Below are positions 17,083-21,783 of a DNA stretch of 32,000 nt, piece after piece. Location of the stretch: the NCBI GenBank assembly GCA_963831235.1, contig CAWHPS010000035.1:44725-76724 (forward strand), in the 5' to 3' direction. The notes below the pieces were generated by a model, which did no database searches, was not told where the DNA came from, and saw nothing but the letters and a program-made list of their open reading frames with translations. How positions within the stretch are numbered: the first letter of the stretch is position 1; each line of letters opens with the position of its first letter. The translations under genes were made by a program, and so were the position numbers. This stretch comes from an uncultured Fibrobacterota bacterium (GTDB lineage: Bacteria > Fibrobacterota > OXYB2-FULL-49-7 > JAEUSG01).

Positions 17083-17127
17083 TTGAAAATAAGATTGTGA
17101 TAATTTATATTTCGTTAAATGACGAAA
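17083..17127 (+). promoter_or_regulatory. Candidate sigma70-type promoter and overlapping operator for the arsR-hgcAB operon
   Basis: TTGAAA (17083-17088) - 17 bp - TATATT (17106-17111); inverted repeat TTTCGT (17110-17115) - N6 - ACGAAA (17122-17127) overlaps the -10 and the arsR ATG. Confidence 0.6.
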
Positions 17128-17520
17128 CATAAAAATACCATATCGCGACCCGTTTCCAGGCCCTTTGAGAATGCATCCGGGTGCACAACCATAATTCTTT
17201 TTTCGCGCCTTGCTTACGCACTATCAGATCCAAACCGTTTGCGAGCGCTTCTTTCCCTTAAAGACGGCGAATTATGCGTCTGCAAAATCACGGAACTTTT
17301 ACGTCTTGCACCGTCAACTGTTTCCAAACACATGTCTGTTTTAAAAAGCAGCGGTCTTGTTGAATCCCGCAAAGAAGGGCGCTGGATATACTACAGGCTT
17401 CCGGTTAAATCAGCAAGTCCTGCTGTTCGGGATGCCCTTAAACTCGTCTTCTCTTGTACAGAATGCGATCCGATATTAGTAAAAGATCAGGCTGCCCTTA
17501 AAAAGATTTGCAGTTGCTAG
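17119..17520 (+). CDS. arsR: ArsR/SmtB-family metalloregulator
   Basis: LSDPNRLRALLSLKDGELCVCKITELLRLAPSTVSKHMSVLKSSGLVESRKEGRWIYYRLP: ELCVC metal-sensing box and winged helix; extra C-terminal CTECDP...CSC. Confidence 0.93.
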   Translation: MTKHKNTISRPVSRPFENASGCTTIILFSRLAYALSDPNRLRALLSLKDGELCVCKITELLRLAPSTVSKHMSVLKSSGLVESRKEGRWIYYRLPVKSASPAVRDALKLVFSCTECDPILVKDQAALKKICSC

Positions 17521-17542
17521 TAAACAATCGCAAGGAGCATGT

Positions 17543-18619
17543 ATGTCAAATGCCTGTTGCGGAACAATGTCTAAAAATAATGGAACAGACACCCTTGCCC
17601 CTTCACCCTGGTCCATTGATTCCATCTGGAAATTTGCTGATTATTATGGTGCAATTGCTGTAAGGCTTTTTGACTCCAAAAGAAACAGCTATAAGGTCAA
17701 TCCGGGCCTGTACAAACTGGGCCATCCTGCACCCGACTCTCCTGTGTTTGCGTCTGCCAATTACAAATTAAGCTTTGATATCCTGCGTAAATCGCTCTCT
17801 AATATTGATTGCTGGATTCTTGTCCTAGATACCAAGGGAATAAACGTCTGGTGCGCTGCTGGAAAAGGCACATTTGGAACAAATGAATTGAATAAGCAGA
17901 TCATGCTTACCAATCTGCACAACAAAGTAACGCATCGTAAAATTATTGTGCCGCAACTTGGCGCATCTAATTTAAAGGCGCATGAGGTCAAAAAACTCAC
18001 GGATTTTCATGTTGAATACGGGCCTGTTCGGGCTCGGGATTTAAAGGAATATCTGAATAACGGTCATAAGGCATCTGCCAAAATGCGTGCAATCCAATTT
18101 CCAATGTATGATCGTTTTATACTTACACCAATGGAAATAGCACAAGCCTATAAACCTGTTTTAATTTTTCTAATATGCTCTATTTTCCTGACAGGGGTAA
18201 TCAAATCTAATCTTCAGGTAACACAGGTTTGGCGGCTAATGCTTCCAATTATTCTTGGAAGCCTTATAAGCCTTGCAGGAGGAGCATTTATTACTCCTCT
18301 TTTCCTGCCCTTTATTCCATTTCGTTCTTTTGCCTTGAAAGGTCTTTGGGTTGGCATTTTGTGCATTGGTATTTACCTTGGTTGTAATCCGGAGATTTTT
18401 AATTCTTTGCCGCTCTTCATTTTCCTCTGTATTATGGCGCCAGCTTTCAGTTCTTTTCTTGCGCTGAATTTTACTGGAGCATCCACATTCACCAATCCTT
18501 CGGGTGTTAAAAAAGAGATGAAGGCTTCAATCCCTTTCTATATAGGGGCTGCGGCAATTTCGCTTTCTTTACTTATTGCATTTTTCATACAAATCTGGAG
18601 GGCCAAATGGTATATATGA
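17543..18619 (+). CDS. hgcA: Mercury-methylation corrinoid protein HgcA
   Basis: 358 aa: YKVNPGLYKLGHPAPDSPVFASANYKLSFDILRKSL...DCWILVLDTKGINVWCAAGKGTFGTNEL, the diagnostic N(V/I)WCA(A/G)GK cap-helix motif, followed by C-terminal transmembrane helices. Confidence 0.95.
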   Translation: MSNACCGTMSKNNGTDTLAPSPWSIDSIWKFADYYGAIAVRLFDSKRNSYKVNPGLYKLGHPAPDSPVFASANYKLSFDILRKSLSNIDCWILVLDTKGINVWCAAGKGTFGTNELNKQIMLTNLHNKVTHRKIIVPQLGASNLKAHEVKKLTDFHVEYGPVRARDLKEYLNNGHKASAKMRAIQFPMYDRFILTPMEIAQAYKPVLIFLICSIFLTGVIKSNLQVTQVWRLMLPIILGSLISLAGGAFITPLFLPFIPFRSFALKGLWVGILCIGIYLGCNPEIFNSLPLFIFLCIMAPAFSSFLALNFTGASTFTNPSGVKKEMKASIPFYIGAAAISLSLLIAFFIQIWRAKWYI

Positions 18620-18912
18620 AAGATGTTACATCATTGCAATACAATGTTTCCTCTTGCAATGGTTGCAGCAGATGCACACAGGTTTGTCCAAGGAATGTTT
18701 TTGTAATGCAAGGCAATAAAGCTGTTCTTACAAGCAAAGACAAATGCATTGAATGCGGTGCCTGCATGAACAATTGCGCTTCAGGGGCTATTTCTGTCAA
18801 ACCTGGCGTAGGATGCGCTGCGGCCATGTTTGATGGACTCTTGCGGTTTGGGGACATGGAAAAGGGAACCTGCGGGTGCGAAAGTGATGATGATAACCGA
18901 GGCTGTTGCTGA
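18607..18912 (+). CDS. hgcB: Mercury-methylation ferredoxin HgcB
   Basis: Overlaps the hgcA 3' end; CNGCSRCTQVCP and CIECGACMNNCA clusters, C-terminal extension with Cys ending ...RGCC. Alternative start at 18616 (ATGA overlap with the hgcA stop). Confidence 0.95.
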   Translation: MVYMKDVTSLQYNVSSCNGCSRCTQVCPRNVFVMQGNKAVLTSKDKCIECGACMNNCASGAISVKPGVGCAAAMFDGLLRFGDMEKGTCGCESDDDNRGCC

Positions 18913-18929
18913 TACCAGGAAACAAAGTC

Positions 18930-19385: not shown

Positions 19386-20019
19386 TCAGGAATCTCCTGA
19401 AAAGCCCTCTTCGGAACCTTGCTGCGGACCGGATTGCGGATGCAATGCAAAACCTGCTTCATCCAAAGGTAAAAAGATTTTACTGACAATTGTCCTTGTG
19501 GCTGTTTGCGTCATATTGGTTTACAAACTGGCTTTTCAGGCAGAAGCCATACCAACAGCCGTGAATCCCGGTTTTAACACACCCGGAACCCTCCCTTCAG
19601 CACAAACAAATACGTCTTTAAACTCAAGCTTTTCTCAGCTCGAAATGCTTTCATCCATGAATGCTTTGAATGAAAAAGCCATGGACAAAAATGCTGTCAT
19701 GGTTTGGGTGCCGTCACAAACCATAAGTTCGATTCCTGAAACTGTGCTTGCTGCTATGCAATCAGCCCAACAAACAATTAAGTCAAAAGGTGTTAATTTA
19801 GGAGTTTATCAGCTCCAGGCCGGTTCCATGGATCAAACAAACATGGCCAAACAGCTTTCCTTGCCTGTTGTATTGGTACTGAGCAAAGGAGCGGGAATGG
19901 GCACAGTAACAGGTGAAATCACAACCGAAAAGTTGCTTGAAGCTTATGTTTCGTCCAACCGCACAGGAGGATGCTGCCCATCCGGAGCCGGTAGCCCTAA
20001 TTGTAAACCGGCGCAATAG
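19378..20019 (+). CDS. Membrane-anchored thioredoxin-fold-like protein with terminal Cys clusters, no CXXC
   Basis: 213 aa; overlaps the arsC stop (ATGATTAA). N-term CCGPDCGC, one TM (ILLTIVLVAVCVILVYKLAF), domain NAVMVWVPSQ...QTIKSKGVNLGVYQL...LSLPVVLVLSKGAGMGTVTGEITTEKLLEAY, C-term GGCCPSGAGSPNC. Confidence 0.6.
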   Translation: MINQESPEKPSSEPCCGPDCGCNAKPASSKGKKILLTIVLVAVCVILVYKLAFQAEAIPTAVNPGFNTPGTLPSAQTNTSLNSSFSQLEMLSSMNALNEKAMDKNAVMVWVPSQTISSIPETVLAAMQSAQQTIKSKGVNLGVYQLQAGSMDQTNMAKQLSLPVVLVLSKGAGMGTVTGEITTEKLLEAYVSSNRTGGCCPSGAGSPNCKPAQ

Positions 20020-20026
20020 GTTATAC

Positions 20027-20722
20027 ATGCAAAATACTTTGATTGCCACACTCCAGCAATGGGTTTCTCATCCGCTTGGGCTACTTATTGCACTTGCATT
20101 GGGTGCTGTAAGCGCATTCGCAAGCGCATGCTGCACCTTACCTGTCATGGGACTTCTTTTGGGCTATTCAGGAACAACTTCTAATGGTGAACACAAATCG
20201 TCTATTAAAACAGCTCTTTTGTTTGCTTTAGGAAGTACCCTGGCTTTAATGCTGGTCGGCGGTATTGCAGGATTTGTCGGGCAGGCAGCGCAAACCGGTT
20301 TAGGTCGTTATTGGAAGGTATTCGCCGGGCTGACAGCTATTATTTTCGGGCTTGCAACAATTAAAGTCCTACCTATCAGCCTGACACTTCCCGGACCTGG
20401 TAAACGAATAGCGGATCTACAAAACATAAGCCCTATTTTATTCGGCCTTATAATGGGTGGAGCAATTGCCGTTTGCTCGCTGCCCTGCAATCCAGGCATC
20501 TTTATTGTCATGGGCGCGGCCATACTTCAGGGAGAAATTACCCGTGCCATACTTTTGCTAACTGCATTTGCTGTTGGATTCAGTATTCCCTTGAGCACAT
20601 TGGTTCTGGGCTTGTCACTTGGAAAAGGCTTGGTAAAAACAAAAACCTTGGACAAAGTCATCCGACTATTTTCCGGCAGCATTCTTATAATCGTGGGGTT
20701 TTATCTTCTCCTATCATTATAA
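20027..20722 (+). CDS. CcdA/DsbD-transmembrane-like protein
   Basis: 232 codons from ATG 20027: six hydrophobic helices, pseudo-symmetric Cys-Pro elements [11 protein letters not shown] and [10 protein letters not shown]. The track start 19913 overlaps the previous gene and is unlikely. Confidence 0.75.
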
Positions 20723-20739
20723 TACAACCGATCAGAACT

Positions 20740-21783
20740 ATGAATAATACGAAACAACTTCCTTTTCTTGATAGGTACCTGACCCTTTGGATATTTATTG
20801 TGATGGGACTCGGTATTGTCATGGGCAACTTTTTTCCGGAAATATCGTCCTTTCTCTCAAAACTCTCTTTGGGCACAACCTCAATCCCAATTGCAATTGG
20901 CTTAATTGTTATGATGTACCCTCCTTTGGCAAAGGTCAATTACCGCCGTATCGGAGAAGTATTCAGTGATCGCAAAGCACTATCGTTATCCCTGATACAA
21001 AACTGGCTCATCGGCCCCGTCCTTATGTTCCTGCTCGCAATCATCTTTCTGCGCGGGCAACCTCATCTAATGACCGGGGTCATTATTATCGGTCTTGCCA
21101 GATGTATTGCCATGGTCATTGTATGGAACAGTCTGGCAAAAGGAAACAGCGAATACGCGGCTGCGCTTGTTGCATTTAATTCTGTTTTTCAGGTTTTATT
21201 TTTTGCGTTTTATGCATGGATATTTGTTACAGTGCTCCCACCGTTGTTCGGCTTGAACGGATACGCTGTAAATGTTTCCATGAAAGATATTGCCATCAGT
21301 GTTGGCATTTACCTTGGAATCCCCTTTGCTGCTGGGTTTGTAACACGTATGGTACTGGAACCCATCAAGGGGGAAGAATGGTACACAACTAAATTCATGC
21401 CGCGAATCGGTCCTTTGGCGCTTATAGCGCTTCTTTTTACCATTTTCATCATGTTTGTTTATAAAGGTAATGCTATTATTTCCCTACCGTTCGATGTTTT
21501 ACGTGTGGCAATTCCTTTGGGGATTTATTTTCTTATCATGTTTTTCGGTTCATTCTTTGTAACTAGGAAACTAGGCATCAGTTATGAAGCTGCGGTCAGT
21601 CTTTCGTTTACAGCCGCGAGCAATAATTTCGAACTGGCCATTGCAGTTGCTGTGGGGGTTTTCGGCATTGCTTCGCAGGAAGCATTCGCGGCAGTTATCG
21701 GACCACTTATTGAAGTTCCTGTCATGATCGCACTAGTGAATGTAGCGCTCAAATTCAGACATTCGTTTGCAAAAATAAACTGA
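20740..21783 (+). CDS. acr3: Arsenite efflux transporter, ACR3 family
   Basis: From ATG 20740: [28 protein letters not shown]...[20 protein letters not shown]...[43 protein letters not shown]. Confidence 0.93.

Follow-up and report, generated by a model that had tools for sequence, protein, structure and literature searches.

Because Hg(II) does not induce hgcAB, the native function and regulation of the proteins encoded by these genes are in question. The locus described here raises this question in a concrete form: does a mercury-methylation gene pair that is enclosed by arsenic-resistance (ars) genes belong with them to one regulated transcription unit? The locus is found in a 32,000-nucleotide stretch, here called the window, of contig CAWHPS010000035.1 (positions 44,725–76,724; assembly GCA_963831235.1) from an uncultured Fibrobacterota bacterium. 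Seven genes on the plus strand between positions 17119 and 21783 follow one another in the order arsR-hgcA-hgcB-arsC-ORF5-ORF6-acr3 (ORF, open reading frame). We think it probable that they form a single polycistronic operon under the control of ArsR, possibly with ORF8 as an additional member, in which the arsC copy is most likely a recent nonsense allele. The features concerned are listed below.

17083–17111, plus strand: sigma-70-like promoter candidate TTGAAA-17-TATATT, the best match on this strand (10/12)
17107–17130, no strand assigned: 9-bp inverted repeat ATATTTCGT / ACGAAACAT, extending across both the −10 element and the arsR ATG
17119–17520, plus strand: arsR (NF033788, 87.7 bits; PF01022, 54.8 bits), with GELCVC in helix alpha-3
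17543–18619, plus strand: hgcA (NF040863 equivalog, 381 bits, cut-off 275), with an NVWCAAGK cap helix and an N-terminal Cys-Cys (CC) form
18607–18912, plus strand: hgcB (NF040864, 103.5 bits, cut-off 99), a 2x[4Fe-4S] ferredoxin with a C-terminal CC
18930–19385, plus strand: arsC of the low-molecular-weight (LMW) phosphatase type (PF01451; TIGR02691, 132.6 bits, equivalog cut-off 174.3), with a TGA codon at 18960–18962
18970–18984, plus strand: small hairpin AACUCC-UGUA-GGAGU within arsC (−5.6 kcal/mol, z −3.3)
19378–20019, plus strand: ORF5, predicted membrane-anchored thioredoxin-fold protein without CxxC (structure model, Foldseek)
20027–20722, plus strand: ORF6, 231-aa CcdA/DsbD_2-like membrane protein (DsbD_2 matches of family members; invariant Cys35, Cys36 and Cys154)
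20740–21783, plus strand: acr3, arsenite efflux permease (TIGR00832, 431 bits, equivalog cut-off 283)
21817–22407, plus strand: ORF8, 196-aa protein, 33 nt past acr3, with AAGGA preceding its start

The window proteins were scanned against Pfam and NCBIfam, and bit scores were compared with the curated cut-offs; for the comparison with TIGR02691, Cys was substituted for the TGA codon of arsC. Family scores and coordinates bear out an initial annotation of this DNA, which had been made from the letters alone, both in the identities it assigned to the genes and in their operon-like packing. When recomputed from the coordinates, the six spacers from arsR to acr3 likewise match that annotation, with 22 nt, a 13-nt overlap, 17 nt, an 8-nt overlap, 7 nt and 17 nt, all seven genes lying on the same strand. 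Promoter and terminator scans were compared with shuffled sequence. No terminator-like site was present in any spacer of the operon, the matches of the terminator scan being located inside genes and occurring at the frequency found in shuffles. A chimeric contig, which the initial annotation had named as a possible source of error, is contradicted by a 6.5-kb contig in the Logan assembly of run ERR12035938, a run that may share its sample with the source assembly. This contig shows an identical gene order from arsR to an EamA gene and ends inside the ISKra4-like repeat upstream of the operon. Thus, the gene order is not an assembly chimera.

HgcA and HgcB are a predicted mercury-methylation pair. 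The translation of HgcA, a corrinoid protein, covers positions 4–321 of the 325 positions of the NF040863 profile and contains the cap-helix motif GINVWCAAGKGTF, which conforms to the pattern N(V/I)WCA(A/G)GK including the Co-ligating Cys. In an alignment of 46 HgcA sequences N101, V102 and C104 are invariant, and W103 is present in at least 90% of the sequences. HgcB contains two CX2CX2CX3C motifs (CNGCSRCTQVC and CIECGACMNNC), the sequence GVGCAAA, which supplies the conserved Cys near residue 73, and a terminal GCC. The closest relatives of the window's HgcA, P0129 and P0128, are 82% and 56% identical to it, respectively; their contigs are too short or devoid of ars genes, and neither of them reveals the age of the architecture relative to that of the lineage. 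The N-terminus of HgcA (MSNACCGT, 17543–17570) represents the Cys-Cys form, while a Cys-selenocysteine (CU) form of this motif is present in many HgcA proteins (Haft 2022, 10.1101/2022.07.06.499078). The 46-sequence alignment also served to fetch 80 species-level hgcAB loci, of at least 597 that were matched, for the survey on which the comparisons below are based. An automated regular-expression scan of these 80 loci tagged the HgcA N-terminus as CC in 24 loci and as C* (in-frame TGA) in two, of which only L082 (PSC*PSKP) resembles a genuine CU form; in L066 the tag falls within a stretch with several stops.

Which signal might such an operon obey? The alpha-3 motif of the window's ArsR (GELCVC, within GELCVCKI) contains the canonical As(III)-binding Cys pair; the third Cys of the R773 protein (Cys37) is absent. 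GELCVC is common to ArsR proteins of plain ars operons (L005, 68% identity; L001) and is found as well in ArsR proteins linked to hgcAB in Fibrobacterota (L069, L009, L062). Since the motif is shared by both groups, the best-supported mechanism would be that As(III) or Sb(III) relieves the repression of all genes in the operon, among them hgcAB. The only promoter-like site on the plus strand upstream of arsR is TTGAAA-17-TATATT, a weak call by comparison with shuffled sequence (see below), and we infer that the inverted repeat at 17107–17130 is a candidate operator for ArsR. In the model proposed here, ArsR would repress, via its alpha-3 Cys-Val-Cys site, a putative promoter located about 10–35 nt upstream of its own start codon, and binding of As(III) or Sb(III) would release the repressor. 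All genes of the operon would then be translated from one mRNA, as is suggested by junctions that overlap or span 7–22 nt. HgcAB would be co-transcribed with the arsenite efflux protein Acr3 and with the thiol-redox membrane pair ORF5–ORF6, and may conceivably play a role in metalloid handling. The proposal of the initial annotation that arsenic or antimony induces hgcAB is a reasonable expectation, based on the ELCVC motif and the single promoter-like site.

An experimental precedent is provided by Pseudodesulfovibrio mercurii ND132, where transcription of hgcAB is ArsR2-dependent and arsenic-responsive (10.1101/2022.10.17.512643). As in the window, a gene of the ArsR/SmtB family is located directly upstream of hgcA in the ND132 cluster arsR2-hgcA-hgcB, whose genes are co-transcribed and respond to As(III) and As(V). 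The ND132 locus differs from the one described here in that it contains no other ars genes.

Physical linkage between hgcAB and ars genes as such has been reported before. Regions in which hgcAB is flanked by acr3, arsC, arsM and arsR were described and illustrated (McDaniel 2020, mSystems Fig. 6, PMC7438021), co-localisation of hgcAB and ars genes was cited by Gionfriddo et al., also for metagenome-assembled genomes (MAGs) from Rifle (10.1101/2022.10.17.512643), and where an arsR-like gene precedes hgcA, acr3 or arsC was found in the neighbourhood as well (Peterson 2025, PMC11984097). The view of the initial annotation that the literature connects only an ArsR-like regulator with hgcAB is therefore at odds with published flanks comprising acr3, arsC and arsM (PMC7438021, PMC11984097). 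The published loci resemble the window in that hgcAB directly adjoins arsR, arsC and acr3 and shares their strand, in that they stem from anaerobic uncultured lineages, and in the hypothesis attached to them, namely that mercury methylation is linked with arsenic detoxification. They differ in that the window has hgcAB placed between arsR and an arsC with an in-frame TGA, followed by the pair of thioredoxin-fold and CcdA-like proteins and by acr3. Thus, the arrangement is not new in kind; what is new is its own gene order and one more example of hgcAB-ars linkage.

In our survey an ars structural gene was counted as linked when it was located at most 2.5 kb from hgcAB on the same strand. This applied to 18 of the 80 loci, which belong to at least five phyla and show several different gene orders; both arsC and acr3 were present in nine loci and arsR in 16. 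A Fibrobacteraceae locus (L009) with the order arsR-arsC-hgcA-hgcB-acr3 encodes an Acr3 that is 81% identical to that of the window. Further variants include hgcAB-arsC-acr3 in Nitrospirota (L029), arsR-hgcAB-acr3 in Treponema (L047), arsC-acr3-hgcA in Verrucomicrobiota (L086) and five ars-linked loci of Bacteroidota (L039, L042, L046, L072 and L079), several of them with arsC-...-hgcAB-acr3. In the comparison of synteny that the initial annotation had called for, hgcAB-ars linkage recurs and the exact gene order of the window does not.

Several of our observations weigh against a functionally integrated, arsenic-controlled operon. The order of genes in the window was not encountered in any of the 80 other hgcAB loci, and L098, which harbors the nearest HgcA relative with genomic context (56% identity), has no ars genes downstream. 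The ORF5–ORF6 pair is found in blocks without hgcAB, such as arsR-ORF5-ORF6-acr3 (L001) and arsC-ORF5-ORF6 (L092–L095). Since relatives contain the ars block without hgcAB, fusion of the two units may be recent rather than functionally selected. In addition, promoter-like sites are no more numerous in the region than in shuffled sequence, promoters of this bacterial group may depart from the sigma-70 consensus, and a distance of 52 nt separates the arsR start codon from an upstream ISKra4-like insertion sequence (IS), which could alter regulation. Finally, the four-Cys site of ND132 ArsR2 lies outside helix alpha-3, the place of the canonical ELCVC motif in the ArsR of the window; the ND132 result is therefore transferable by analogy only.

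Taken to its end, this line of argument would mean that an arsR-hgcAB unit, which is common among Fibrobacterota, and an arsC-ORF5-ORF6-acr3 block were joined by rearrangement, perhaps mediated by an IS, and that any co-transcription is without functional meaning for HgcAB. The window indeed looks like a junction of these two parts: besides the free-standing ORF5–ORF6 blocks just mentioned, arsR-hgcAB alone occurs in three Fibrobacterota loci (L019, L062, L069), gene order varies between lineages, and an ISL3 fragment is located nearby in addition to the ISKra4-like element. Against a purely incidental juxtaposition stands the frequency of structural linkage in the survey, given that a random 5-kb neighbourhood would contain an ars gene in well below 1% of cases (a rough estimate, not computed). 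That these genes have come together repeatedly and independently speaks for selection on linkage, and we regard an accidental origin as rather unlikely. An alternative of another kind concerns the inducer. ArsR might sense S-adenosylhomocysteine (SAH), Hg(II) or another soft metal, in which case the operon would serve a general response to thiophilic metals or to the state of the methyl cycle. This idea draws on the finding that ND132 ArsR2 also responds to treatments that raise SAH (10.1101/2022.10.17.512643), on the many ligands sensed within the ArsR/SmtB family, several NCBIfam subfamily models of which match the window's ArsR below their cut-offs, and on extra cysteines in this protein (C22 and a C-terminal CTEC...CSC). 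It is quite improbable in view of the canonical ELCVC motif, which is shared with plain ars-operon regulators, and of the arsenic-specific genes acr3 and arsC downstream. Control of the entire operon by an As(III)- or Sb(III)-responsive ArsR thus appears to be the preferable interpretation.

The TGA codon in arsC requires an explanation of its own. It occupies the position of the P-loop nucleophile, replacing the catalytic Cys10 of the CX5R loop, where every arsC of the surveyed loci encodes Cys. Otherwise the gene is intact, with the xTGNSCRS context, the loop Arg and a pair resembling Cys82/Cys89 (VCDDANETCP). In these respects, and in its PF01451 fold, it corresponds to the thioredoxin-coupled ArsC proteins of Staphylococcus pI258 and Bacillus subtilis, from which it differs by the TGA at the nucleophile codon and by a TIGR02691 score that lies below the equivalog cut-off even with Cys at the TGA position. 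The initial annotation took the TGA for a selenocysteine (Sec) codon, which would make Sec the P-loop nucleophile of a functional selenoenzyme. If this were true, it would be the first Sec form of an LMW-phosphatase-type, thioredoxin-coupled arsenate reductase, as the Sec arsenate reductases known so far fall into other families (TIGR00014, NF041106). The exact coincidence of TGA with the catalytic Cys codon is the usual signature of Sec/Cys pairs, and the integrity of the remaining reading frame and a 5-bp hairpin with G in its UGUA loop past the TGA would also be in line with Sec insertion. The dN/dS ratio of arsC relative to its nearest relative is 0.22, compared with 0.13 for the neighbouring genes, a value that fits Sec and nonsense readings alike.

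The hairpin lies closer to the TGA than foreseen by the bacterial model for a selenocysteine insertion sequence (SECIS), which calls for G within the first two positions of the loop and for an apical loop 16–37 nt past the UGA (PMC13188914): in the window the apical loop starts at 12 nt. For three stretches of 51–71 nt past the TGA, folding does not surpass that of shuffles (z −0.25, +0.02 and −0.36), and Cys-type arsC homologues fold equally well downstream of the nucleophile codon. Above all, the nearest arsC relatives (L093, L096) have TGT followed by the same downstream sequence and hairpin; the TGA is therefore a single T-to-A change, and the hairpin is older than the TGA. The AGG and AGT codons of the hairpin had been considered as Sec-specific compensatory changes in a comparison with L092, which is ruled out by their presence together with TGT in L093 and L096. 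The best 120 protein homologues of ArsC are all full-length Cys forms. One 126-aa homologue starting with MAEG (P0284), which had been taken for a second truncated (TGA) form, is encoded on a contig with TGT, and its internal start had been chosen by the gene caller. Scanning metagenomes for TGA in the context TGNSCRSQMAEG yielded five contigs, of which three contain decayed genes and two represent one intact sequence. The latter (L088, Ga0209591_10000027; L091, ORBV01019919) is an LMW-phosphatase-type arsC from a GC-rich organism with TGA at the catalytic Cys, and constitutes the sole other candidate Sec form that we found. The existence of this intact form, present in two assemblies, is a point in favor of the Sec reading, to be set against the three decayed cases, the CC rather than CU form of the window's own HgcA, and the lack of selABCD genes within the 32-kb window. 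Scans of the whole window with Rfam at gathering thresholds and for tRNA and tmRNA genes gave no match, tRNA-Sec included. In sum, a Sec-containing ArsC is clearly unlikely; neither a SECIS element nor conservation of the TGA supports it, and we see no evidence for the use of Sec in this gene.

Judged by these comparisons, the most likely explanation for the arsC copy is a recent nonsense change from TGT to TGA. With such an allele the operon lacks a working arsenate reductase, and the window would probably provide As(III) efflux and not As(V) reduction. The designation as a complete arsenic-resistance operon in the initial annotation is thus doubtful, the operon being incomplete if the TGA acts as a stop.

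The two genes between arsC and acr3 had no match in Pfam or NCBIfam. ORF5 belongs to a tiny family, with seven matches among 5.8 billion proteins. It consists of an N-terminal CCGPDCGC sequence, one transmembrane (TM) helix, a domain spanning residues 88–196 and a C-terminal GGCCPSGAGSPNC cluster; based on the positive-inside rule, its N-terminus is predicted to be cytoplasmic. Residues 88–196 were modelled with a confidence (pLDDT) of 83–90 and in the order beta-alpha-beta-alpha-beta-beta-alpha, and Foldseek related the model to thioredoxins, non-catalytic PDI b' domains and DsbD-gamma (E 1e-4 to 1e-3, probability 1.0). As judged from the structure model, ORF5 has a thioredoxin fold. The CxxC site that would follow strand beta-1 is absent; the sequence there is VWVPSQ, and none of the seven family members has a Cys at this place. 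The term thioredoxin-like used in the initial annotation is thus appropriate for the fold (Foldseek E about 1e-4) and not for the active site. A 364-aa protein call (P0003; L092, 355–1449) fuses a Cys-type ArsC in frame to an ORF5 homologue. It is based on a single 2.1-kb contig and on a 1-nt difference from the window, and it agrees with a cytoplasmic N-terminus of ORF5; if real, it would be a Rosetta-stone link of ArsC to a Cys-rich thioredoxin-fold membrane protein. Other fusions among ArsC homologues (P0282, P0283, P0348 and L005 6707–8029) comprise a tandem double ArsC (252 aa), ArsR-ArsC (262 aa) and ArsC-ArsM (440 aa).

ORF6 represents a large family of 231-aa proteins (1508 matches) that are named CcdA in the source databases. 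C35, C36 and C154 are invariant within this family and form a vicinal CC in TM1 and a single Cys in TM4. DsbD_2 matched six of 42 family members (best E 4e-10), and ORF6 shares 30% identity with a canonical DsbD_TM protein in L003; the structure model of ORF6 was too poor for use (pLDDT 49.5). Hence, CcdA-like appears to be a fitting label at the level of the superfamily; the window protein has no Pfam match of its own.

Is the pair peculiar to this locus? Genes for CcdA and thioredoxin were recognised in ars operons as early as 2010 (PMC2963123), and pairs of the ORF5/ORF6 type were found within ars clusters in all of the contexts inspected, namely in L001 (with arsR and acr3), in L003 (with arsA and arsD), in L005 (with arsR, a P-type ATPase gene, an ArsC-ArsM fusion and acr3) and directly past arsC in L092–L095. 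As in the published operons, genes of the DsbD/CcdA family and for a thioredoxin-fold protein are placed between ars genes, usually together with arsC. The window's pair departs from the published ones in that the ORF5 domain has lost CxxC and carries Cys clusters at both termini, and in that ORF6, with its vicinal CC in TM1 and one TM4 Cys, falls below Pfam thresholds. ORF5 and ORF6 are thus accessories of ars operons in general and not special to the locus described here.

Cys-rich pairs of this kind are located directly beside hgcAB in several phyla, which is possibly the one new point to emerge from our comparison. A Bacteroidota locus (L053, 6534–9263) contains an arsR-like gene followed by genes for a 105-aa Cys-rich TM protein and an ORF6-like protein, hgcA and hgcB, with neither arsC nor acr3 within 8 kb of the pair. 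In two further Bacteroidota loci (L039, 6585–10472; L075) the pair is situated between arsC and hgcA. A Chloroflexota locus (L080, 25–2756) encodes an ORF5-like C-terminus, an ORF6-like protein and a lipoprotein ending with CCPEGSGSSC, followed by hgcA. A Fibrobacter MAG (L023, 3028–6285) has arsR, genes for a Thioredoxin_3-like, a CPTC thioredoxin-like and a CcdA-like protein, hgcA and hgcB, the pair being of the canonical CxxC/CcdA form. A hidden Markov model of the ORF6 family confirmed the pair members beside hgcAB and added weak matches in L025 and L086. The motif CCP.G.GS..C recurs at the C-terminus of proteins with unrelated scaffolds. A full-text literature search found no paper that names hgcAB alongside CcdA, DsbD or proteins of cytochrome c biogenesis. 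It is tempting to speculate that the Cys-rich pair is a previously unrecognised accessory of HgcAB that might pass soft metal(loid)s, for example Hg(II) or As(III), through the membrane by a thiol relay or might supply reductant. We put this forward tentatively and consider it unlikely on balance; the linkage of the pair to hgcAB might equally be a side effect of its association with ars genes.

With hgcAB in a promoter-proximal position next to a canonical As(III)-type ArsR and acr3, the locus offers a clean test, provided by nature, of the published idea that the formation of methylmercury is part of metalloid detoxification or shares its regulation. What the locus contributes is a Fibrobacterota-like case whose gene order is new; it brings no new concept. 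The proposed mode of control suggests that co-contamination with arsenic or antimony could raise hgcAB expression in such organisms. The thiol-redox membrane pairs are a recurrent, unstudied neighbour of hgcAB and may be relevant to the route by which Hg(II) gets to the enzyme.

Both ends of the operon have neighbours to be considered. Downstream of acr3, ORF8 may be an eighth gene of the transcript. Its product has an N-terminal hydrophobic segment and no match in Pfam or NCBIfam, even at E values up to 5; the gene is present in the Logan contig too, and it is not conserved beside hgcAB or ars genes in the other loci examined. The upstream neighbour is the insertion sequence mentioned above, which is not part of the operon.

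15011–17066, minus strand: ISKra4-like IS of about 2.06 kb, with perfect 19-bp terminal inverted repeats at 15011–15029 and 17048–17066

Its transposase is encoded by two overlapping ORFs (16221–16640 and 15038–16294; NF033572 below cut-off, E 4e-36), and the element also carries a DUF6788 ORF (16647–16940). The ISL3-family transposase gene 10 kb upstream of the operon (6254–7231) is truncated; its 325-aa product covers profile positions 3–233 of 370. One neighbouring gene product gave a weak, below-cut-off match to a type IX secretion system sorting domain, and for ORF5, ORF6, Acr3 and ArsC the best relatives were found in Fibrobacterota MAGs; both would place the bacterium in the Fibrobacterota-Chlorobiota-Bacteroidota group, probably in Fibrobacterota or a close relative. 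Directly upstream of the ISKra4-like element, the minus strand encodes a complete resistance-nodulation-division (RND) efflux system (9058–14522) consisting of an outer-membrane factor (415 aa), an HlyD-type adaptor (334 aa) and an AcrB-type pump (1035 aa). Together with the ars genes, it makes up a resistance-rich neighbourhood.

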